DNA of 60,159 nt, filler included. It is 6 parts of 6 records of this genome, joined end to end, with 100 filler letters (N's around TTAATTAATTAA, not from the genome) between each part and the next. Parts side by side here need not be neighbours in the genome. Positions count along the whole stretch, not along the records: positions 1 to 21,206 come from SRR31156797_36725; 5 more parts are not named here. One strand, given 5' to 3'. The translations under genes and the position numbers were made by a program. The notes beneath the pieces were generated by a model. The model was given only the letters and a program-made list of their open reading frames with translations. It made no database searches and was not told the origin of the DNA. Each line of letters begins with the position of its first letter. Position 1 is the first letter of the stretch. Positions 5,054 through 52,043 of this stretch are shown one piece after another.

Positions 5054-6838
5054 ATGACCGTTGCTACGGCTCAAGGCGATGCGAGCAGTCGCTTCGAACG
5101 GCTGATCGAAATCGGCATTGCGCTCTCCGCGGAGCGCAATCACAACCGGCTAATGGAACGAATCCTTCTTGAGGCGAAGGGACTGTGCAACGCCGATGGC
5201 GGCACCCTTTACCTCAAGTCCGACGATGATCGACTGCGCTTCGAAATCATGCGCACCGATTCACTCGGCATCGCCATGGGTGGAACGACCGGCAAGGAAA
5301 TCCCCTTCCCGCCACTTGAAATGTTCGATCCCGAAACCGGGCAGCCCAACCACAAGAACATTGCAACCCATGCCGCCCTGACCGGCGATTGCATCGATAT
5401 TCCCGATGCCTATACCGCCGATCAATTCGATTTTTCCGGAACAAAAAAATTCGACGAAGGAACCGGTTATCGCTCGAAGTCGTTTTTGACGGTTCCGCTC
5501 AAGAACCACGACGGCGATGTCATCGGGGTTCTCCAGCTTTTGAATGCACAAGATTTGCAGTCCGGAGACGTTATTCCGTTCACCGCCGATATCCAACCGT
5601 TGATCGAAGCATTGGCGTCGCAAGCCGCCGTTGCGCTGGACAACCAGCAGCTGATCGATGCCCAGCGGCGCTTGCTCGATTCTTTCATCGAATTGATTGC
5701 CAGCGCAATCGACGCCAAATCGCCTTATACCGGCGGCCACTGCCAGCGCGTGCCCGAATTGACCAAGATGCTGGTCGGCGCCGCATGCAACGCGAACGAT
5801 GGCCTCTACAAGGAATTCGATCTCACCGAAGACGAATGGTACGAACTGCACATCTCGGCCTGGTTACACGATTGCGGCAAGGTCACCACACCGGAATACG
5901 TGGTCGACAAGGCCACCAAGCTGGAAACTATCAACAACCGCTTACATGAGGTCCGCACCCGGTTCGAGGTCATCAAAAGGGACGTCGAGATCGACTACCT
6001 GAAAGGCGTGCTCGACGGCGGCGATGAAAAAAACCTGGCCGCCGAACGGGATGCCCGATTGGCTCAACTGGACGATGATTTCGCCTTTGTCGCGGAATGC
6101 AATGTCGGTGGCGAATTCATGGCGCCGGAACGTATCGAACGGCTGGAGAATATCGCCCGGATCAAATGGTCACGCACCCTGGACAACCGCATCGGCCTAT
6201 CGCACGAAGAAGAAAAACGCATCAACAAAACGCCGGCGCCGAAGCTGCCGGTCGAGGAAAGCCTGCTCGCCGACAAACCGGAACACATCATTGAACGCGA
6301 ACCAAGCGACATTATCGCCGAAGACAACCCGTATGGATTCAAGCTCGAAACGCCTAAGGACAAATACAATTTGGGCGAGGTCTACAATCTGCGGGTCTCG
6401 CGGGGCACCCTAACCGCCGAGGAACGATACAAGATCAACGACCATATGGTTCAGACCATCGTCATGCTGGAGCAACTGCCGTTCCCGAAGCACCTGAAAC
6501 GCGTGCCCGAATATGCCGGGGGCCACCACGAAACGATGATCGGCACCGGATATCCCAAAAAACTGACCAAAGCGGACATGTCGATCCCGGCCCGTTGCAT
6601 GGCCATCGCCGATATTTTCGAGGCGCTCACCGCCTCCGACCGGCCTTATAAAAAACCGAAGACGCTGAGCGAAAGCATCCGCATCATGTCGTTCATGCGC
6701 AACGACCAGCACATCGATGCGGACCTGTTTGAGTTGTTCCTGCGGTCCGGCGTCCACAAACAATACGGCGAGAAATATCTGGCGCCGGAACAGGTCGACG
6801 AGGTCGATATCGAGGGGTTCTTGAATACGGGATATTAG
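5054..6838 (+). CDS. GAF + HD-GYP domain protein (c-di-GMP phosphodiesterase)
   Basis: N-terminal GAF (ADGGTLY, GYRSKSFLTVP), DAKSPYTGGHCQRV, WLHDCGK, HHETMIGTGYP, ADIFEALTASDRPYK. Confidence 0.93.
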   Translation: MTVATAQGDASSRFERLIEIGIALSAERNHNRLMERILLEAKGLCNADGGTLYLKSDDDRLRFEIMRTDSLGIAMGGTTGKEIPFPPLEMFDPETGQPNHKNIATHAALTGDCIDIPDAYTADQFDFSGTKKFDEGTGYRSKSFLTVPLKNHDGDVIGVLQLLNAQDLQSGDVIPFTADIQPLIEALASQAAVALDNQQLIDAQRRLLDSFIELIASAIDAKSPYTGGHCQRVPELTKMLVGAACNANDGLYKEFDLTEDEWYELHISAWLHDCGKVTTPEYVVDKATKLETINNRLHEVRTRFEVIKRDVEIDYLKGVLDGGDEKNLAAERDARLAQLDDDFAFVAECNVGGEFMAPERIERLENIARIKWSRTLDNRIGLSHEEEKRINKTPAPKLPVEESLLADKPEHIIEREPSDIIAEDNPYGFKLETPKDKYNLGEVYNLRVSRGTLTAEERYKINDHMVQTIVMLEQLPFPKHLKRVPEYAGGHHETMIGTGYPKKLTKADMSIPARCMAIADIFEALTASDRPYKKPKTLSESIRIMSFMRNDQHIDADLFELFLRSGVHKQYGEKYLAPEQVDEVDIEGFLNTGY

Positions 6839-6864
6839 CGTCCACAAACGCCGGGTTCACGGGC

Positions 6865-7794
6865 CTAAACCGCCAGTTGGGCGGCGATCATTCCAGCCAA
6901 CACAATCAACCCGAAATCGCGATTAGACTTGAATTTTTTCAGGCAGTCCTTGGGATCCGCGGTATCAACCCGCGCCACCTGCAAGCCGAGGTGAAACGAG
7001 CCCCCTGCCAGAAATGCGAAAAATGGCCACGGCAATTCCTCCAGAAATCCGGAAACAGCCATAAGCACAACAGCAATTCCATAAAATCCAAACAACCATG
7101 GTCGGGTCCGGTCACCCAACCTCAAGGCGCTGGATTTGACGCCAACCAAAAGGTCGTCCTCCTTGTCCTGATGCGCGTAGATCGTGTCGTAGCCGAGGGT
7201 CCAGAAAAATCCCGCCGCATAAAGGACAACGGGGGCCCAGGAAAGCCCGCCCTGCACCGCCGCCCATCCCATCAATGCTCCCCAATTGAAGGTGAGGCCG
7301 AGCCAGGCCTGCGGCCAATAGGTGAAGCGCTTCATGAACGGATAGATTGCAACCAACGGCAAAGCGGCCACACCCAGCCAGATGGTGAAAGCATTGAACT
7401 GCAATAAAATCAGAAGTCCGACCGACAACAGTCCGCCAAGGAATACAAAGGCGGCAAAAAGCGAGATCGCACCGCTGGCGACGGGCCGGGTCGCGGTTCG
7501 CGCCACTTGGCGGTCGAATTCCCGATCCGCCATGTCGTTGACGGTGCATCCAGCCGCCCGCATGACCAGCGAACCGATCGCGAAAAGCGCTGCCAGATAA
7601 AAACCCGACCAATCCGGCTTCGCCAAAGCGACGCCCCACCAACAAGGCAACAACAATAGCCATGTACCGATCGGCCGGTCGATCCGTGCAAGCCTAAAAT
7701 AGGGGCGCGCCGCAGACGGAACGTATCGATCGATCCAATCGTCCGATTTGATATCGCTGGCGCTGTCGGCAAATTCTTTCATCGGCCGAACCAT
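6865..7794 (-). CDS. ubiA: 4-hydroxybenzoate octaprenyltransferase
   Basis: RIDRPIGTWLLLLP, NDMADREFD, YDTIYAHQDKEDD. Confidence 0.96.
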   Translation of the reverse strand: MVRPMKEFADSASDIKSDDWIDRYVPSAARPYFRLARIDRPIGTWLLLLPCWWGVALAKPDWSGFYLAALFAIGSLVMRAAGCTVNDMADREFDRQVARTATRPVASGAISLFAAFVFLGGLLSVGLLILLQFNAFTIWLGVAALPLVAIYPFMKRFTYWPQAWLGLTFNWGALMGWAAVQGGLSWAPVVLYAAGFFWTLGYDTIYAHQDKEDDLLVGVKSSALRLGDRTRPWLFGFYGIAVVLMAVSGFLEELPWPFFAFLAGGSFHLGLQVARVDTADPKDCLKKFKSNRDFGLIVLAGMIAAQLAV

Positions 7795-7921
7795 ATACGT
7801 CCCAATGGGGATCGGGCAACGGTTCCGGCCAGTTCAACAAACTCCCGAGTATTCGGTGCCTTGCAGTGCTCTCCCCGGATCGTATGATGGCCTTCAATCG
7901 GTTTCGTATGGGATTGGTCCA

Positions 7922-8683
7922 ATGACCCGGGAGAAAAACAAGGTCCGCCTGTATATCGATGAGGCTCTCACTGAAAGCCGGGCGATCGAACTCGGCCGCG
8001 AGCAAAGTCATTACGTCGCCCATGTCATGCGTCAGCGCATGGGCGATGAGATTTCTCTGTTCAATGGAAGGGATGGCGAGTGGCGGGCGGCCATCTCGGA
8101 ATTGATGCGCAACCGTGTCAGCGTTTCCTGCCTTGGGCAAATACACGAACAGAATCCCGAGCCAGACATCTGGCTGCTGTTTGCGCCTTTAAAAAAAACG
8201 CGCATCGATTTTGTTGTCGAAAAGGCAACCGAACTCGGGGTCTCATGCCTGCACCCCGTCCTGACCGAAAGAACTGCCGTAACCCGCATCAATCCGGATC
8301 GGCTTTTAGCCCGCGCCATCGAAGCCGCCGAGCAGTGCGAGCGTTTGACCGTTCCCCAGATCGAACCGGCGTCCAGCCTCCATAACCTGATCTCCGATTG
8401 GAACGAAGACCGGCGCCTGTTCGTTTTGGACGAAACCGGAAGCGGCCAATCAATTTTCTCTGCCTTTGCCGAAGCCGCCGGAAAAGCGGGAAAAGCGGTT
8501 CCGCCATGCGGGATTTTAATCGGTCCCGAGGGCGGTTTTTCCGCTTCGGAACTTGACGGCCTGAAAAAACAACCCTTTGTTACGTCAGTAACGCTTGGCC
8601 CTCGAATTCTCCGAGCCGAAACCGCCGCAGTGGCGGCGTTGGCATGCTGGCAGGCTATCGTCGGGGACTGGCAACGACAATAA
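7922..8683 (+). CDS. rsmE: 16S rRNA m3U1498 methyltransferase
   Basis: VEKATELGV, EAAEQCER, IGPEGGF, LGPRILRAETA; ATG at 7922 preferred over the longer ORF call. Confidence 0.95.
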   Translation: MTREKNKVRLYIDEALTESRAIELGREQSHYVAHVMRQRMGDEISLFNGRDGEWRAAISELMRNRVSVSCLGQIHEQNPEPDIWLLFAPLKKTRIDFVVEKATELGVSCLHPVLTERTAVTRINPDRLLARAIEAAEQCERLTVPQIEPASSLHNLISDWNEDRRLFVLDETGSGQSIFSAFAEAAGKAGKAVPPCGILIGPEGGFSASELDGLKKQPFVTSVTLGPRILRAETAAVAALACWQAIVGDWQRQ

Positions 8684-16493: not shown

Positions 16494-17452
16494 GGCACGA
16501 ACTCACCCGCATCGGGCACGAGATCCATCTCATAACCCCCGAACAATTTCGGACCTTTCCGTGTCCATCCTATCCTGAAATCCGGCTGGCGGTGCGATGC
16601 GCCGCTGGCGTCGCCCGCATGATCGATGCCTTTCAACCGGCAGCCATTCATATTTCCACCGAAGGGCCGCTGGGTCTGGCGGCGCGGCGTCATTGCCTGA
16701 AAATGGGCTACGATTTCACCACCGCCTTCCACACCCGATTCCCCGAATACGTCCAGGCCCGCTGGCGGGTGCCGACGGCTTGGACCTATCGCTGGGTGCG
16801 ATGGTTCCACGATCCGGCCTCCGCGATCATGGTGTCGACCCAGACCATCGAAGACGCGCTGAAGGAACGCGGTTTCGGTCGCATCAAGCGCTGGTCGCGC
16901 GGCGTCGATACTGATCTGTTCCGGCCCCGCGACAAGGACTTCCTCTCGGCCACCTGCCCGATTTTCATGTATGTCGGCCGTGTCGCCGTCGAAAAGAACG
17001 TCGAGGCCTTCCTGTCGCTCGATCTTCCGGGCACCAAATACGTGGTCGGGGACGGCCCGCAGATGGCCGATTTGAAAACGAAATTCCCGGAAACCGTCTT
17101 TACCGGCGCCAAAACCGGCGAAGACCTGGCCCGCCACTACGCCGCCGCCGACGTTTTCGTCTTTCCAAGCCTGACCGATACCTTCGGCCTGGTCATATTG
17201 GAAGCCCTGGCCTGCGGCGTTCCGGTCGCCGCCTATCCGGTCGAAGGCCCGCTCGATGTCATCGGGCAGTCGACCGCCGGCGTCCTCGATGCCGATCTTG
17301 GTTGTGCCGTCCGGGCGGCGCTTGAAATTCCGCCCGAGGTCTGCCGGGCCCATGCCGAATCTTTTTCGTGGGAAGCCTCGGCCCGCCAGTTCCTCGGCAA
17401 CCTGCAGCGTCTCGATCCGCCGGCCGGTGTGCAACGAGCCCGCGCTGCTTGA
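16421..17452 (+). CDS. GT4 glycosyltransferase (Agt-like glycolipid synthase)
   Basis: TDAWYPQINGVVRT, TEGPLG, HTRFPEY, GRVAVEKN, TDTFGLVILEA; overlaps the upstream gene. Confidence 0.9.
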   Translation: MRILIVTDAWYPQINGVVRTLDTLRHELTRIGHEIHLITPEQFRTFPCPSYPEIRLAVRCAAGVARMIDAFQPAAIHISTEGPLGLAARRHCLKMGYDFTTAFHTRFPEYVQARWRVPTAWTYRWVRWFHDPASAIMVSTQTIEDALKERGFGRIKRWSRGVDTDLFRPRDKDFLSATCPIFMYVGRVAVEKNVEAFLSLDLPGTKYVVGDGPQMADLKTKFPETVFTGAKTGEDLARHYAAADVFVFPSLTDTFGLVILEALACGVPVAAYPVEGPLDVIGQSTAGVLDADLGCAVRAALEIPPEVCRAHAESFSWEASARQFLGNLQRLDPPAGVQRARAA

Positions 17453-17472
17453 TCCGATTGTCGCGGAACTCC

Positions 17473-17763
17473 TTAGTCCTCGTCTTTCTCATTGGCGATC
17501 GATCCGTCTTCGGCGTCGTTGACGATCAGCGGCCACAACAGCGCCCCCATCTCGGGACCGAAGGCCTTGGTCAGCAAATAGGCCGCATCCGGTGAGATCG
17601 CCGCGTCCAGGCGTTTCAGTTCCTCGGGCGACAGGTTGCGAAGACCGCCCAGCAGGTGCGGCATCATCGCCGGTCCGTGCGGGTTGGCCATTCGGTTGGC
17701 CTGGGCCGGTTCGCCCGCCCCGGGGTTTTCCGCAAATTCGGCATCGAGTAAAGATTGGCTCAT
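17473..17763 (-). CDS. Hypothetical 96-aa acidic protein
   Basis: ATG overlaps the upstream stop (ATGA, 17760-17763); high-GC codon usage. Confidence 0.65.
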   Translation of the reverse strand: MSQSLLDAEFAENPGAGEPAQANRMANPHGPAMMPHLLGGLRNLSPEELKRLDAAISPDAAYLLTKAFGPEMGALLWPLIVNDAEDGSIANEKDED

Positions 17764-20423
17764 GAACTTGTCTCCTGTTCGTATAGCATCGAATAGTCGG
17801 TCTCGCGCGCGAACCGGCCCAGCAGCCAGCACAACGGCTCACCGACAAATCGCACGATCTTGCCGCGCAGGCTGCCGCGCGGCCGCTTGCCCAGAACATG
17901 CGCCACCTCCTCGGCCCGCCAGCGCGCCAGCGGCGCGACAATAGCTGTCGCCAGCCTGGATCGCCGCATCAGGCGCACCAGCGGCACCGCCCACAGGTGA
18001 TAGCCGCGCAAATGGGCCGGGCTTAGCCGTTCCTCGGCAAAGCGCAGATCGAGGAAATAGAGCTCCGCCTCAAGGCGCCCCTGGCGTACCAGCTCGGTGC
18101 AGATGACGCGGGTATCGGGGCCATTGTCCGACGGGCCTCCGATAAGAAGGTTTTCTCTTCCGCCGCCGGTCGTAACAACGAAACCGGAATAATCGCTTCT
18201 GATGGGCTTCCCATCTGCGTTGGTTACGGGCTGGAGAGAGAGCGGTTCATGAGGAGCTCCCGGAACGAAGCCTTCCGCACCGTAATCGCCACCGCGTCCG
18301 TCGCGTCCTCCTGCCCCGCTCCCTCCGTCGCCGTCTGTGGGGCGGTTTCGCCTGCTGTCTTGATTGGACCGCAAATTCCATTCGCCTTTGCTTTTGGCGG
18401 AATTTTGCGCCGTCCTCACGGCTTCGGCCATCTGGCGTGGAATTTCCCGGGAGTCGAGATCCCGTTTTCCTGCTTTAGCCAGTGTATTGGGTACAAAACC
18501 TTCGGCACCGAAATCCTCAACGCCGAACGCGGCAACGGAGATTTTCCTGTCGTCGGCTAATTTGTTTCGGCGTTCGTCGATTTCCGCCGCTCTTGCCAAC
18601 TCCTGACGATCACGGGCCATTGCTGCTTGTCGTTCGGCTTTATTGGTTCGGGTTTTGGTTGCCGCATCGATATCCCTGGCACGATTTCTGGCTTCCCCTT
18701 GTTTTTCCATTTGGGCGTCGAAAACGGTTGGGTTATTCATAAATCCCGCCAACACCTCTTTTCCGCCCAATGACGCAAGTTGGCGACCTTTTTGCGGATT
18801 TGCCCCCGGTACGCCGAGACCAATCTTCGCACTTCTATTTGGATACCCGGGACCGCCTTGCCACCCTATGCCTGTGATTGAGGTTATCGGATCCGCAAAG
18901 GTATCGAATAGGTTCGACTGTTTTCCGGGCACTGTGTTTGTCTTTTGTTCCTTATACTTTCCAACCGGAGAATTCTTGGATGCGTCCAACGCCTGACTTA
19001 CCTTCGCGGCAGCAAAATTGGTTGCAGCTTCATCGGTCATTCCAGAGTCGCGGGCAGCCGTATAAGCCGCTTCGAATTCGGGAGTTTGAATAGCACGGCC
19101 GCGAACTTCCACCGGTTGTCCATCGAAATCTATGGTGACGAGAGGTGATCCCATCGGGGTCTTAATCGCATTCGCCTCGGCCACCTCGATTGCCCTCGCG
19201 GCGGTAACATCGAGGGCGTCCTCGTGCCAGAGACCAGCACCTATGCCGTCAACATAAGCCTGCTGAGACACCTTCGGATCAATTGGATCGTAACCCATCA
19301 TATGGAGATACGTCCCGATCAAATCGGCAACGGGTGCCGAATAGGGATCCAACATCGAAATCCCCGTTCCCGACCGGAGTGCTGATTTTAAGTTTTCGGC
19401 ATTACCCGTGCTGAATTCTTGAACGATTTTAGCCGCAATTTCTTCGATCGATTTGCCCAACGTGATTTCTGAAAGCGCATAGTCTTTGGCCTTCGTCCAA
19501 TGCTTTTGATCTAGTTTCCTCGGTGTTCGACTGAGTTTTGCGAAGGCTCTCTGAACGGCGATGTTCGCGCGGTCCACTTTCAGCCCGTCACTAGTCAACG
19601 CAAGTGCTGAAGTTCCGCCAAGCGCGCGTCCAACTTGGGTCCAGAACGGCTTCGATGCCTTCTCGTGGCGGATCGAAATCGGCTGCACCTTTTTGTTGAT
19701 AACGTCATCAAAAAAGGACTTCATCAGATGCGTCTCGACGGGCTCCTTTCCGCTAACGATGGGGGCACCCAGAAGAGGTCCCAAATCGGGATCGCCCGGG
19801 GTCCATGTCGTTGCCCGAGGGTAGGTTGCCGTTTCGACCAAAGATGTTCCAAATTTGGAAACCTGTTCATTGGAAATGCGATGTGCATAACCTTCAATAC
19901 GGGACATTACAGAGGGATCAAGTGGGCGATCTAAAACTGATTCCAAAGCCTCCTTGCTGCCCGGACCTTGGATATTTTCAACGGTACACCTGCCAGGAGC
20001 GTTCCGACCCGCTTTTTCGAGGGCCTGATAGCATAACGCCTCAGCAAGCCCCCCTCCGGCACTATGTCCGATCGCCTTTACGTGTGAGCCTTTCTGAATT
20101 TCCGTTGCCATACGGTCGACAACCCGCGCAAATACGGGGCTGTCCATCCATGCCTGCAACAGACCGATATCAGCGACAACGTCCTTTGTCGCCTCTTTGT
20201 AGCCTCGGTCAAATTCCGTCCCCCGAATGTTGATCGTTATCTCGCTTGGATTTCCAATTTTATTTTGTTCGTAAGCGACAAACCCAATCTCCGGGTCCAC
20301 GTGAGGTTTTGGAGAAGTAAATCCGTCCAACCTAGCTTTTGAAGGGTTTTCATATGCTTTGTCCGCGGCTTCGGCCGCGAACTTCAGTTCGTTGTGATCG
20401 ATTTGAGGTTTATTCGATGCCAT
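17760..20423 (-). CDS. 887-aa protein: N-terminal class-3-lipase-like alpha/beta hydrolase, long low-complexity middle, C-terminal 'VICTEL...GYHLWA' domain
   Basis: Long ORF preceded by AGGAG; motifs IRGTE, IGHSAGGGLA, QGPG, ETHL; no signal peptide. Confidence 0.8.
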   Translation of the reverse strand: MASNKPQIDHNELKFAAEAADKAYENPSKARLDGFTSPKPHVDPEIGFVAYEQNKIGNPSEITINIRGTEFDRGYKEATKDVVADIGLLQAWMDSPVFARVVDRMATEIQKGSHVKAIGHSAGGGLAEALCYQALEKAGRNAPGRCTVENIQGPGSKEALESVLDRPLDPSVMSRIEGYAHRISNEQVSKFGTSLVETATYPRATTWTPGDPDLGPLLGAPIVSGKEPVETHLMKSFFDDVINKKVQPISIRHEKASKPFWTQVGRALGGTSALALTSDGLKVDRANIAVQRAFAKLSRTPRKLDQKHWTKAKDYALSEITLGKSIEEIAAKIVQEFSTGNAENLKSALRSGTGISMLDPYSAPVADLIGTYLHMMGYDPIDPKVSQQAYVDGIGAGLWHEDALDVTAARAIEVAEANAIKTPMGSPLVTIDFDGQPVEVRGRAIQTPEFEAAYTAARDSGMTDEAATNFAAAKVSQALDASKNSPVGKYKEQKTNTVPGKQSNLFDTFADPITSITGIGWQGGPGYPNRSAKIGLGVPGANPQKGRQLASLGGKEVLAGFMNNPTVFDAQMEKQGEARNRARDIDAATKTRTNKAERQAAMARDRQELARAAEIDERRNKLADDRKISVAAFGVEDFGAEGFVPNTLAKAGKRDLDSREIPRQMAEAVRTAQNSAKSKGEWNLRSNQDSRRNRPTDGDGGSGAGGRDGRGGDYGAEGFVPGAPHEPLSLQPVTNADGKPIRSDYSGFVVTTGGGRENLLIGGPSDNGPDTRVICTELVRQGRLEAELYFLDLRFAEERLSPAHLRGYHLWAVPLVRLMRRSRLATAIVAPLARWRAEEVAHVLGKRPRGSLRGKIVRFVGEPLCWLLGRFARETDYSMLYEQETSS

Positions 20424-20508
20424 GGTCAGTGGCTCCTACCGGGCGAAGTAATTCCGTACAAGCGACAGCATTTTGACGAGGTCATTCATATCCAAAGCAA
20501 ACTAGTTT

Positions 20509-21072
20509 TTAGGTAATCGAGCTCTCGCCCAAACGCTCCGCCAACGCCTGCCCAATGGCGGATTTACGTTCGTCCGGGCTCAGGCCTGGCAGCTCGGTGG
20601 GCTTGATATTGGACAGCGGTCCAACCGGCCTTGAGCCTTTCGACGTGCCCCTCAACCCCAGCCACGCCGAGTCCGTTCGGGGGTTTTCCGAGATCGGGCT
20701 CATTCTGCCGAGGTCGTATTTCGCACGGCCCGGATAGGCCCCATCGAAGAAAGACAAAACCGTATCCCGCACCGCTTTCGATTGCGGTGACGTGCCTTGC
20801 CGGTATTCGGCCGTCGGCATCAATCCGTGGGTGACCTCGTGCTCGTGCAGCAGATCGGGATCGAGCGGCAAACGCCCGATGGGCGTATCGATGCGCTCCG
20901 GCTCGGCCCGGCCCAACATCAGGGCCAAAACGTCGAAAATATCCTTCGGCGCCGTATCCGGCGCTTCCCGCGCCGTAATATGATTGTGCTTGAATGCATC
21001 GAAGGCGGGTTCGGCCAACAGGCCGGACAAGCTCCTCAAAACGTCCCGTTCGAAAATCGTGCTCGATGTCAT
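20509..21072 (-). CDS. Hypothetical 187-aa protein with an HExxH motif
   Basis: ORF preceded by GGAG and a promoter; contains LLHEHEVTHGL. Confidence 0.6.
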   Translation of the reverse strand: MTSSTIFERDVLRSLSGLLAEPAFDAFKHNHITAREAPDTAPKDIFDVLALMLGRAEPERIDTPIGRLPLDPDLLHEHEVTHGLMPTAEYRQGTSPQSKAVRDTVLSFFDGAYPGRAKYDLGRMSPISENPRTDSAWLGLRGTSKGSRPVGPLSNIKPTELPGLSPDERKSAIGQALAERLGESSIT

Positions 21073-21099
21073 GGTCTACTGCTCCATTCCTTCGATCAC

Positions 21100-21128
21100 A
21101 TCATAGGATAATAATCTCTTATTGTCAA
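21100..21128 (-). promoter_or_regulatory. Near-consensus sigma70 promoter overlapped by imperfect palindromes
   Basis: Minus strand TTGACA-ATAAGAGATTATTATCC(17)-TATGAT, 27 nt upstream of the ATG at 21072. Confidence 0.8.
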
Positions 21129-21206
21129 GGTATTTTTTCTTATTGTGTGTTTTACGTCATTTTAACGGCATCCGGGATAGCGCGCGGACTGCACGCAAAT
21201 GAGGCT

Positions 21207-21306
21207 NNNNNNNNNNNNNNNNNNNNNNNNNNNNNNNNNNNNNNNNNNNNTTAATTAATTAANNNNNNNNNNNNNNNNNNNNNNNNNNNNNNNNNNNNNN
21301 NNNNNN
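21207..21306. other. Artificial contig linker
   Basis: 44 N + TTAATTAATTAA (stops in all six frames) + 44 N. Confidence 0.99.
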
Positions 21307-28203: not shown

Positions 28204-28303
28204 NNNNNNNNNNNNNNNNNNNNNNNNNNNNNNNNNNNNNNNNNNNNTTAATTAATTAANNNNNNNNNNNNNNNNNNNNNNNNNNNNNNNNNNNNNNNNN
28301 NNN
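28204..28303. other. Artificial contig linker
   Basis: 44 N + TTAATTAATTAA + 44 N. Confidence 0.99.
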
Positions 28304-34032: not shown

Positions 34033-34132
34033 NNNNNNNNNNNNNNNNNNNNNNNNNNNNNNNNNNNNNNNNNNNNTTAATTAATTAANNNNNNNNNNNN
34101 NNNNNNNNNNNNNNNNNNNNNNNNNNNNNNNN
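34033..34132. other. Artificial contig linker
   Basis: 44 N + TTAATTAATTAA + 44 N. Confidence 0.99.
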
Positions 34133-44335: not shown

Positions 44336-44435
44336 NNNNNNNNNNNNNNNNNNNNNNNNNNNNNNNNNNNNNNNNNNNNTTAATTAATTAANNNNNNNNN
44401 NNNNNNNNNNNNNNNNNNNNNNNNNNNNNNNNNNN
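44336..44435. other. Artificial contig linker
   Basis: 44 N + TTAATTAATTAA + 44 N. Confidence 0.99.
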
Positions 44436-51943: not shown

Positions 51944-52043
51944 NNNNNNNNNNNNNNNNNNNNNNNNNNNNNNNNNNNNNNNNNNNNTTAATTAATTAAN
52001 NNNNNNNNNNNNNNNNNNNNNNNNNNNNNNNNNNNNNNNNNNN
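51944..52043. other. Artificial contig linker
   Basis: 44 N + TTAATTAATTAA + 44 N. Confidence 0.99.

Follow-up and report, generated by a model that had tools for sequence, protein, structure and literature searches.

A chromosomal operon of a marine Rhodospirillales-like bacterium joins a lipase-like domain to a phage-shared C-terminal domain and may encode a mosaic effector

The window analysed here is a stretch of 60,159 nucleotides (nt) made up of six joined pieces, and its subject is a promoter-led, three-gene operon at the end of the first piece (positions 1 to 21,206, SRR31156797_36725). The middle gene of this operon encodes a mosaic protein of 887 amino acids (aa) in which a lipase-like domain, a long linker and a compact C-terminal domain, here called the tail, follow one another. 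The pieces are joined by linkers of 44 N + TTAATTAATTAA + 44 N at 21207-21306, 28204-28303, 34033-34132, 44336-44435 and 51944-52043. The GC content of the joined pieces lies at about 0.36-0.65, genes on separate pieces are not neighbours, and the other five pieces were unused as context. The features of the operon are listed below, with the third-position GC content of codons given as GC3 and the isoelectric point as pI.

21207..21306, no strand: artificial joint; the contig of the operon stops there, 134 nt upstream of the first gene
21100..21128, minus strand: putative sigma-70-like promoter, TTGACA-17-TATGAT, a consensus match at 11 of 12 positions, upstream of the operon
20509..21072, minus strand: first gene, for a 187-aa protein of no known family; GC3 0.745, host-like
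17760..20423, minus strand: middle gene, an intact open reading frame (ORF) for the 887-aa mosaic protein (lipase-like domain, linker and tail)
19704..20366, minus strand: predicted class-3-lipase-like alpha/beta-hydrolase domain (aa ~20-240), recognised from motifs, language-model neighbours and fold
18138..19703, minus strand: low-complexity charged linker (aa 241-762) with two GAEGFVP motifs; GC3 0.52 together with the lipase-like domain
17763..18113, minus strand: C-terminal tail domain (aa 771-887), with six helices, a pI of 10.2 and two conserved Cys (Cys773 and Cys863, in ICTEL and EPLC)
17473..17763, minus strand: 96-aa acidic partner; its ATG and the TGA of the middle gene share bases (TCATGA)

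All three ORFs are intact, and the candidate at 21100..21128 is the single promoter-like site within 17200-21206. The 887-aa gene is preceded by a Shine-Dalgarno sequence (AGGAG, 9 nt before the ATG), and the partner (pI 4.3) has its own AGGAG 8 nt upstream and is coupled to the 887-aa gene by the ATGA overlap. An earlier note on this DNA had described the 887-aa ORF, which proved to be real and intact, and had overlooked both the partner ORF downstream of it and the 187-aa module ORF upstream. In library scans, the 887-aa protein matched no family in Pfam or NCBIfam and nothing among the PDB sequences, and its single match in PHROGs was weak and lay in the linker (E 0.018). The 187-aa protein had no significant match in Pfam, NCBIfam, PADLOC or the PDB sequences, and the partner had nothing significant among the PDB sequences.

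The tail was modelled with AlphaFold2 (AF2) from a 39-sequence alignment. The model is confident and all-helical, with six helices (predicted local distance difference test score, pLDDT, 87.9; predicted template modelling score, pTM, 0.78), which bears out the compact C-terminal domain that the earlier note had seen in the sequence. The tail is basic and without a membrane-spanning stretch, and its conserved positions are the two Cys, Gly49-Tyr50, Trp53, Pro56, Met61, Arg78, Glu104 and Gly111. By motif count, 153 of 156 proteins have the first Cys right where the domain begins, and 143 of the 156 have the second. A first metagenome scan with the single protein had given 197 pattern matches and 0 relatives, and the family was then sized with phmmer against 1.84 billion cluster representatives (50% identity), which returned 1912 representatives at E<=1e-3 and 714 at E<=1e-10. 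In every one of the 155 relatives fetched (122-2090 aa in length), the tail match ends 54 residues or fewer from the C-terminus. The tail is a very large family without a curated description, and it is always C-terminal.

The window tail itself had no match in Pfam, NCBIfam or PHROGs, the tail profile had 0 matches among PDB sequences, and a Foldseek search of the tail against the PDB gave nothing below E 2.5. The sole structural matches were other viral proteins that end in the same domain, gp49 of phage HMO-2011 included, and the neighbours in the ESM atlas were unnamed in 30 of 30 clusters and mostly viral. A likeness to the NEL E3 ligases was considered and rejected, as the best VIA matches (Z 4.8-5.1) fall under the tool's stated noise level for helical bundles; the catalytic Cys of those ligases presumably lies at the opposite end of the range aligned to the tail. 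In terms of what precedes the tail, a Pfam scan of 67 longer relatives left 62 without a domain and gave four with LysM and one with Hydrolase_2 (a cell-wall hydrolase), and a weak PPPDE match was seen among the N-termini of the family. The expectation of a conserved module behind varied N-termini was therefore borne out, with the tail C-terminal in 155 of 155 relatives.

A locus collinear with that of the window was found in L207, a metagenome contig of 31.9 kb. The identities between the two are 81% for the GT4 protein, 88% for the LpxH-like protein, 67% for DAGK, 73% for TldD, 80% for a Cys/Met enzyme, 79% for PmbA, 84% for GCS2, 86% for the partner and 57% for the upstream ORF (193 aa in L207), and L207 has one additional ORF of 280 aa. 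The tail protein of L207 (786 aa) aligns with aa 441-887 of the window protein only; its N-terminal ~440 aa are unrelated and resemble P0008, not the lipase. L207 keeps the tail and the partner while the N-terminus is unrelated, and the comparison thus directly supports an exchange of the N-terminal module on a fixed tail-partner platform. This supports, at L207, the reversed polymorphic layout that had been proposed, with a constant C-terminus and a swapped N-terminus. The upstream 187-aa ORF recurs as an internal module within relatives of the tail protein (P0007, E 3e-37; P0014, E 1e-20; more weakly P0051, P0010, P0025 and P0009), and sub-segments of the linker differ in which relatives share them, which gives a mosaic pattern. 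Since the 187-aa module and the linker segments are shared so variously, module shuffling is general in the tail family.

The base composition of the window operon follows the same division. GC3 is 0.527 for aa 1-260 and 0.523 for aa 261-757 of the middle gene, 0.777 for the tail, 0.763 for the partner, 0.745 for the upstream ORF and 0.727-0.769 for three host genes. By maximum likelihood, the change point falls after codon 762 (~18137), nine codons ahead of the start of the tail domain, where GC3 rises from 0.524 to 0.792. The step is strong, with twice the log-likelihood difference (2dLL) at 33.7 compared to a maximum of 18.0 in 300 codon permutations (Fisher p = 1e-8), so that the switch noticed by eye near 18140 is real. 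The L207 gene has the same gradient (front 0.58-0.65, tail 0.79-0.80). Because of this GC3 step, the 887-aa gene is regarded as a compositional chimera in which the tail, the partner and the upstream ORF look resident, while the 2.3-kb front looks imported. Judged by composition, the tail-partner cassette, with its host-like GC3, is old in the bacterial lineage, and the N-terminal 762 codons are foreign. The low-GC segment had no match among phage records, either as DNA (distant mode) or as protein. The two GAEGFVP copies of the linker lie at 18224-18244 and 18452-18472 (aa 716-722 and 640-646); the motif was found in eight of 156 family proteins, all of them close relatives, and two of these have two copies.

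The prediction that residues ~20-240 are class-3-lipase-like is supported by four independent lines: the ESM-atlas neighbours, the AF2 fold with its VIA search, Foldseek, and a Lipase_3-positive homologue in L214. The motifs that had been read from the sequence (IRGTE, GHSAGG, the acid of ISNEQV and the His of ETHL) are present as described. GHSAGG lies at 20052-20069, and Ser121 within GHSAG (aa 119-123) is the candidate nucleophile. The candidate acid is E186 in ISNEQV (Asp instead in P0004 and P0005), and the candidate base is H232 in ETHL, which is invariant across a 5-sequence alignment; the acid stands at +65 and the His at +111 from Ser121. Residues 181-242, which cover E186 and H232, have a pLDDT below 50 in the model, and the triad is a candidate only. 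In the ESM atlas, aa 1-260 have Phospholipase-like, Lipase_3 and Mbeg1 clusters as neighbours (scores 0.94-0.96), and the ten best named matches belong to one clan. The AF2 model of the lipase part has a pLDDT of 60.4, with the core residues 86-180 well modelled and a strand-elbow-helix arrangement around Ser121 (G-x-S-x-G elbow). In the VIA fold search, the top 14 matches all have the Lipase_3 fold (Z 8.2-5.1, 115-155 residues aligned), and those that follow are unrelated (Z <=4.9). The best Foldseek matches were fungal lipases and a lipase effector of the type VI secretion system (T6SS), with E from 2e-3 to 1e-2.

The L214 ORF is homologous to aa 67-207 of the window protein (E 2e-8) and passes Pfam Lipase_3 with 30.6 bits against a cutoff of 22. 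When pieces of the window protein, aa 1-250 among them, were scanned at E<=10, Abhydrolase_3 alone appeared (E 0.18), over the GHSAGG elbow. No homologues of the N-terminal domain with similar length were found. In L214, the Lipase_3-positive part is a separate 423-aa ORF (5677-6948) that overlaps by 40 nt the start of a 483-aa tail protein (6909-8360), and this is a natural version in two genes or else a fusion split by a frameshift.

The genomic settings of the tail were counted over 80 viral loci, 46 genome loci and 2 plasmid loci. A tblastn search with the tail found gp49 of Puniceispirillum phage HMO-2011 (41.8% identity over 93% of the tail, E 1e-29) and also Pelagibacter phage HTVC033P. 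In 39 of the 80 viral loci the order is TerL-portal-gp50-[tail protein]-gp48-coat, as in HMO-2011-type podoviruses, and the complete ORFs for phage tail proteins after the portal gene encode 462-1644 aa. The link to podoviruses that the earlier note had made is thus real, as the tail occurs in podovirus virion modules such as that of HMO-2011. The homology is confined to the C-terminal end: the window protein aligns with the phage gp49 proteins over aa 733-887 at most (650-887 when low-complexity sequence is included). Like the gp49-type proteins, the window protein has a tail followed by a small partner ORF; it lacks their conserved N-terminal domain (first ~130-220 aa) and their portal/coat position, and its neighbours are housekeeping genes.

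PHROGs were also run on twelve further loci, namely the Thalassospira locus L038 and 11 viral contigs, and in 10 of the 12 the annotated neighbours are structural, packaging or lysis genes. In a second podovirus group the tail gene follows TerL and portal; elsewhere it stands beside baseplate/tail-fibre genes, beside lysins/internal-virion proteins, or after a head-closure gene near giant polyvalent proteins. L121 has no neighbour with a PHROG function, and L113 has lytic/internal-virion genes on one side of the tail gene and replication genes on the far side. The L057 contig, which is myovirus-like, encodes a 1463-aa protein with the tail (L057:3951-8342) beside baseplate wedge genes; this protein matches phrog_358 and phrog_877 (function unknown) and, weakly, a tail-fibre PHROG. 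Because L057 carries it, the tail domain is not confined to podoviruses or head-proximal genes. In a prophage-like region of Thalassospira and in a related viral contig, a giant polyvalent protein (L038:12285-16313, 1343 aa; L072:12240-16340, 1367 aa) is encoded ~4 kb downstream of the tail gene. The PHROG matches of these giants include DarB-like antirestriction and minor head protein families, and the L038 giant also matches a DNA methyltransferase PHROG and Pfam InPase.

The ends of the gp49-type proteins were compared in a sample collected with the conserved N-terminal 139 aa of gp49, in which the best 80 of 334 matches on viral contigs gave 66 complete proteins. A basic end ...KKMKRGGLASKK (GLASKK) was found in 32 of the 66, with no tail and no partner and with gp48 following after 48-118 nt. 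Another end together with a partner found by the hidden Markov model (HMM) was present in 18, with a gap to gp48 of 204-293 nt, and five more had 'KIVCTAM...EPICYIVG' tails with a partner-like ORF that the profile missed and that was seen by eye. None of the 66 combined the GLASKK end with a partner, and of the remaining 11, two are split ORFs, two have a Hint-type end and seven end in other ways. The divergent Cys-helical phage tails are homologous to the window tail by hhalign (96.6%, E 7e-10; 67.6% for a mixed set). The phage partners all end in ...RGLAS[KR], which is the terminal motif of the 'plain' gp49 proteins. Given this clean split of end types with the partner, and given the RGLAS[KR] end of the partner, tail, stop codon and partner head together behave in phages like a single unit that was inserted ahead of the original C-terminal motif. 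In HMO-2011-type phages the C-terminus is the polymorphic part, and tail plus partner are an exchangeable end. In HMO-2011 itself, the partner homologue is a 65-aa ORF in the 270-nt 'gap' between gp49 and gp48 (L056:8372-8566, plus strand, equal to L001:9372-9566); it overlaps the gp49 stop by one base and is unannotated in the reference record.

These phage data allow a more specific, speculative proposal, to which we give limited credence. The tail and the partner head may form a mobile gene-splitting cassette that inserts in frame just before GLASKK; the two halves of the protein would be rejoined non-covalently by tail-partner binding, and a new activity would be added. In bacteria, such a cassette would have been domesticated as a fixed C-terminal platform on which N-terminal enzymes are swapped by recombination, which amounts to a polymorphic effector system of reversed polarity.

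Some gp49 homologues carry Hint/intein-like domains at their C-terminal end (L145:7896-8795, L192:8321-9220 and L193:1739-2638). The L145 domain scores 19.8 bits for intein_Cterm against a cutoff of 15.6 and is followed by a hydrophobic tail and a partner ORF; matches to Hom_end_hint and Vint stayed below threshold. The presence of such domains at the same place as the tail, along with the first Cys at the domain start in 153 of 156 proteins, could be taken to mean that the tail processes itself, cleaving at VI/CTEL through the conserved Cys as nucleophile and so releasing the N-terminal enzyme. We consider this very improbable: the tail fold is all-alpha and not that of Hint, no Hint matches were obtained with it, the Cys has no invariant His, Asn or Thr to pair with, and a second Cys, conserved in 143 of 156, points rather to a disulfide or a metal site.

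The partner lies directly downstream of the tail gene in the window, in 42 of the 80 viral loci and in seven of the 46 genome loci (iterated profile; offsets -29 to +22 nt). Its family comprises 122 clusters, none of them named, and close relatives share 67-76% identity. Over 33 pairs, the median pI is 9.4 for the tails and 4.85 for the partners, and since a basic tail is paired with an acidic partner, it is suggested that the partner binds and masks the tail. A prediction of the tail-partner complex scored 0.00 and gave no answer (alignments were not used and the partner fold is uncertain), so it is not evidence either way. The tail is ~40-60% identical across phage, exporter-linked and chromosomal copies, compared to a mean column identity of 22% for the partner. 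The tail tree is weakly resolved (23 of 110 inner branches starred), the context labels cluster on it, and the window tail is nearest to that of L207 (72% identity) and then to other chromosomal or metagenome copies.

A different reading of the tail-partner pair is that the tail is an address or handle for sorting, packaging or docking; cargo would then be tethered through the partner to the capsid, the portal or an export machine, and the N-terminal enzyme would be the sole active part. The tail is constant while the N-termini vary, also at L207, and where an N-terminal module can be given a name, it is an enzyme or a wall binder (the lipase-like domain, four LysM and one Hydrolase_2 of 67, and the weak PPPDE match). 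Docking would also explain why the phage partners keep the GLASK end, as tail-partner binding would re-link the split halves of the gene through the RGLAS[KR] end of 'plain' gp49. This reading is nevertheless unlikely, as the tail is far better conserved than the partner, which is unusual for a mere docking pair, and the partner is missing at many loci. The two bacterial settings described next also speak against it.

In the exporter-linked setting, a short tail protein lies within ~5 kb of genes for HlyD and a peptidase-containing ABC transporter (PCAT), as seen in 13 of the 46 genome loci and in both plasmid loci (Rhizobium and Vibrio). Carriers include Rhizobium, Vibrio, Pasteurellaceae and Comamonadaceae. 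By script, a leader-like G[GA], an extension of 47-119 aa and the tail follow one another in 15 of 17 such loci. Gly, Ala and Ser make up 53-74% of the extension in 13 of these 15, and the script chose the wrong Gly-Gly for at least L027. Because the N-terminal double-glycine leader specifies export, the tail is cargo and not address in the PCAT-linked relatives, where it is the only folded part of the mature product. An address would be senseless there, since these proteins have an export leader already and no cargo beyond the Gly/Ala/Ser extension. The sorting, packaging or self-processing module with an exchangeable enzyme that the earlier note had inferred therefore stands in part: the comparison with L207 supports an exchangeable N-terminus, while a signal role is not supported; the PCAT leader is N-terminal, the phage cassette is itself variable and the all-alpha fold is not Hint-like. 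The window protein has neither a double-glycine leader nor a PCAT/HlyD neighbour, and the only ABC match is weak (1e-58) and lies 35 kb off, on another joined piece. Two exporter-linked loci have a small ORF with two transmembrane (TM) segments after the tail gene: L008 (Rhizobiales; 62 aa, 9 nt after) and L023 (Agrobacterium; 60 aa, 23 nt after). These two-TM ORFs are unrelated to the acidic partner and are of a kind seen as bacteriocin immunity proteins.

The window operon belongs to the third setting, that of lone chromosomal loci. Loci of this type (L004, L006, L017, L031, L035 and L036) lie among genes for cytochrome bc1, PhoX, 2-oxoglutarate dehydrogenase, BipA and malate synthase, and neither these six nor the window operon nor L207 have capsid, portal or secretion genes nearby, which is a further point against docking. 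The contig piece of the operon carries, over 1-17.4 kb, LexA-type, LysRS, UbiD/UbiA, RsmE, GCS2, PmbA/TldD, DAGK, LpxH-like and GT4 genes. A tRNA and an integrase were looked for on the 21-kb contig piece and not found, there is no phage gene within 1-17.4 kb, and neither genes nor markers of a T6SS were seen on this contig. In L207, ferredoxin-type and lipoprotein genes lie upstream of the operon, and there are no phage genes in the 4.6 kb upstream or the 8 kb downstream. The context of the operon is chromosomal and not that of a prophage, in a marine Rhodospirillales-like bacterium (the lineage is judged from the names on relatives).

Since tail and partner are common to genes of phage virion modules, and the contig stops 134 nt upstream of the operon so that adjoining phage genes could be out of view, the locus might be the decaying remnant of an integrated phage, functionless in the host. 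It is hard to credit this with more than a small likelihood. The three ORFs are undamaged, with Shine-Dalgarno sites and a promoter close to consensus, and the tail, the partner and the upstream ORF are host-like in GC3. The locus is conserved in L207 (partner 86%) with no phage genes around it, the other lone loci also lie among housekeeping genes, and neither a tRNA nor an integrase is present on the 21-kb piece.

Taken together, we tentatively favour the explanation that the operon encodes a mosaic, phage-derived polyvalent effector, although our confidence in it stays somewhat short of even. The tail would be an autonomous effector-type domain, and its target would be conserved, probably anionic and located in the envelope or inside cells. 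Within the producer, the acidic partner would bind the tail and mask or escort it, much as an immunity protein or a chaperone does, and the lipase would be a second, exchangeable warhead. The tail is read as an effector domain because the PCAT/HlyD-exported proteins have nothing else folded, because it always stands at the extreme C-terminus, as toxin tips do, and because it is conserved at ~40-60% across settings while the partner drifts (22% mean column identity).

Several findings weigh against this explanation. No solved fold resembles the tail, and it is therefore from context that the tail is called an effector. Its conserved residues (the two Cys, Tyr50, Arg78, Glu104 and Gly) form no known catalytic site, and His51 is not invariant. 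The partner was not found at PCAT-type loci, nor at several lone loci (L004, L005, L006, L036 and four Terasakiella loci), so that an obligatory immunity role is doubtful, and a partner that keeps the GLASK end fits docking as well as immunity. In terms of the lipase-like domain, Pfam Lipase_3 (PF01764) matched neither the whole 887-aa protein nor aa 1-250, and the model is of modest quality (pLDDT 60). Finally, no secretion signal, hydrophobic segment or linked secretion system was found for the window protein. The maximum Kyte-Doolittle mean over 19 residues is 0.90, which means that no hydrophobic segment is present in the whole 887-aa protein; a dedicated signal-peptide predictor was not run.

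The operon could alternatively be a domesticated anti-phage system of the abortive-infection type, in which the tail-partner pair serves as sensor or antitoxin, the lipase kills, and the tail or partner proteins of infecting HMO-2011-type phages compete with the host pair and release the lipase. Lipase and phospholipase effectors are common in defence systems, the host lineage (Rhodospirillales names on relatives) is of the kind infected by HMO-2011-type phages, and the locus is chromosomal, promoter-led and kept at the orthologous position of a relative; the combination of basic tail and acidic partner resembles that of toxin-antitoxin pairs. We find this improbable, given that PADLOC-DB 2.0 gave 0 matches at E<=0.01 for the three window proteins and five proteins of relatives, that relatives at the same locus have N-termini other than a lipase, and that no known sensor or NTPase component is present. 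A defence role, a phage remnant and self-cleavage are all less likely than the polyvalent effector favoured above.

The operon shares features with several known systems. The polymorphic toxins of Zhang et al. (2012) are said to have a constant N-terminal trafficking part, a variable C-terminal toxin tip and an immunity gene directly downstream. This layout is reversed at the bacterial locus and present in the phage gp49 slot; the small downstream ORF is there, and the Pfam scan found no named toxin or pre-toxin domain in the window protein. Jamet et al. (2017) reportedly described phage-encoded polymorphic toxins on head proteins (MuF-type). The polyvalent proteins of phages are likewise a known kind of system (Iyer et al. 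2017, PMC5512222). As far as the accessible part of that paper goes, MuF toxins and polyvalent proteins resemble the present family in being multi-module proteins near portal/virion modules, with a variable end-module in phages, a small downstream gene, and chromosomal copies without phage context. In contrast to them, the window protein has no MuF or other named domain, its end-module is undescribed and all-alpha, the constant part at the bacterial locus is C-terminal and the variable part N-terminal, and the phage partner carries the displaced C-terminal motif. The accessible part of a study of internal virion/ejection proteins of podoviruses with passenger domains (Hardies et al. 2016, PMC4819975) describes similarly long, low-complexity virion-module proteins that host variable enzymatic passengers; the likeness is one of layout. 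In contrast to the proteins of that study, as far as it was available, gp49 of HMO-2011 lies between portal and gp48/coat and not after tail tube genes. No virion proteome of HMO-2011-type phages and no function of gp49 was found in the published literature searched.

Class-3 lipases and antibacterial lipase effectors (T6SS effector, PDB 9cys) share with the window protein the GHSxG elbow and an alpha/beta fold (Z up to 8.2 over ~145 residues). The window protein differs in falling below the Pfam threshold and in having Glu as the acid, and the likeness is drawn from sequence and model. The class II microcins and double-glycine substrates resemble the short family members, which have a leader, Gly-rich stretches and HlyD + PCAT neighbours, and at two loci small 2-TM ORFs. 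However, the mature PCAT-linked products, at ~160-240 aa with a folded 115-aa domain, are larger than the classical ones, and the window protein has no leader. A resemblance to CFI-box-CTERM (NF041770), another C-terminal domain that opens with a Cys motif, had been suggested in the earlier note and did not hold up. For the divergent phage tail of L148, a weak alignment covers positions 1-64 of the 69 in the profile and reaches 13.9 bits, with the cutoff at 40 (E 0.036). Nothing matched the window tail at E<=1, and the name is not mentioned in the literature searched; membership was rejected. Three other results turned out in favour of that note's proposal: the homologues are not conserved over their full length, phage relatives of the tail exist, and the GC step is real. 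Membership in the Lipocone superfamily was also considered. Its members form a cone of four helices, in which His (H2), Glu (H3) and Asp (H4) are conserved, with a Gly cap (PMC12419801). The tail has the mostly conserved His51, Glu82, Glu104 and Gly111 on successive helices, which is a loose residue pattern only, with no Pfam Lipocone match and no TelC, Wnt or SAA chain among the listed fold matches.

In the literature and databases searched, no describing paper or curated family was found for the tail, the partner or the function of gp49. Phage-derived polyvalent and polymorphic effectors are already known; what is new here is the domain, the reversed polarity at the bacterial locus and the proposed gene-splitting cassette. 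Among domain families without a curated description, the tail is one of the larger, and it links virion proteins of HMO-2011-type phages, bacteriocin-like proteins exported by peptidase-ABC transporters and conserved chromosomal loci of marine alphaproteobacteria. The phage data also expose an unannotated conserved gene in a reference phage genome, that of HMO-2011; phages of this type are dominant and broadly distributed in the ocean, according to the accessible part of PMC9038755. If the tail is an effector, its activity, be it antibacterial or for host takeover, would be new and would come with a partner ready to neutralise it, and if it is a docking module, it would represent a new way to load cargo. 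Either way, the comparison with L207 is a clean natural case of N-terminal swapping on a fixed C-terminal cassette.

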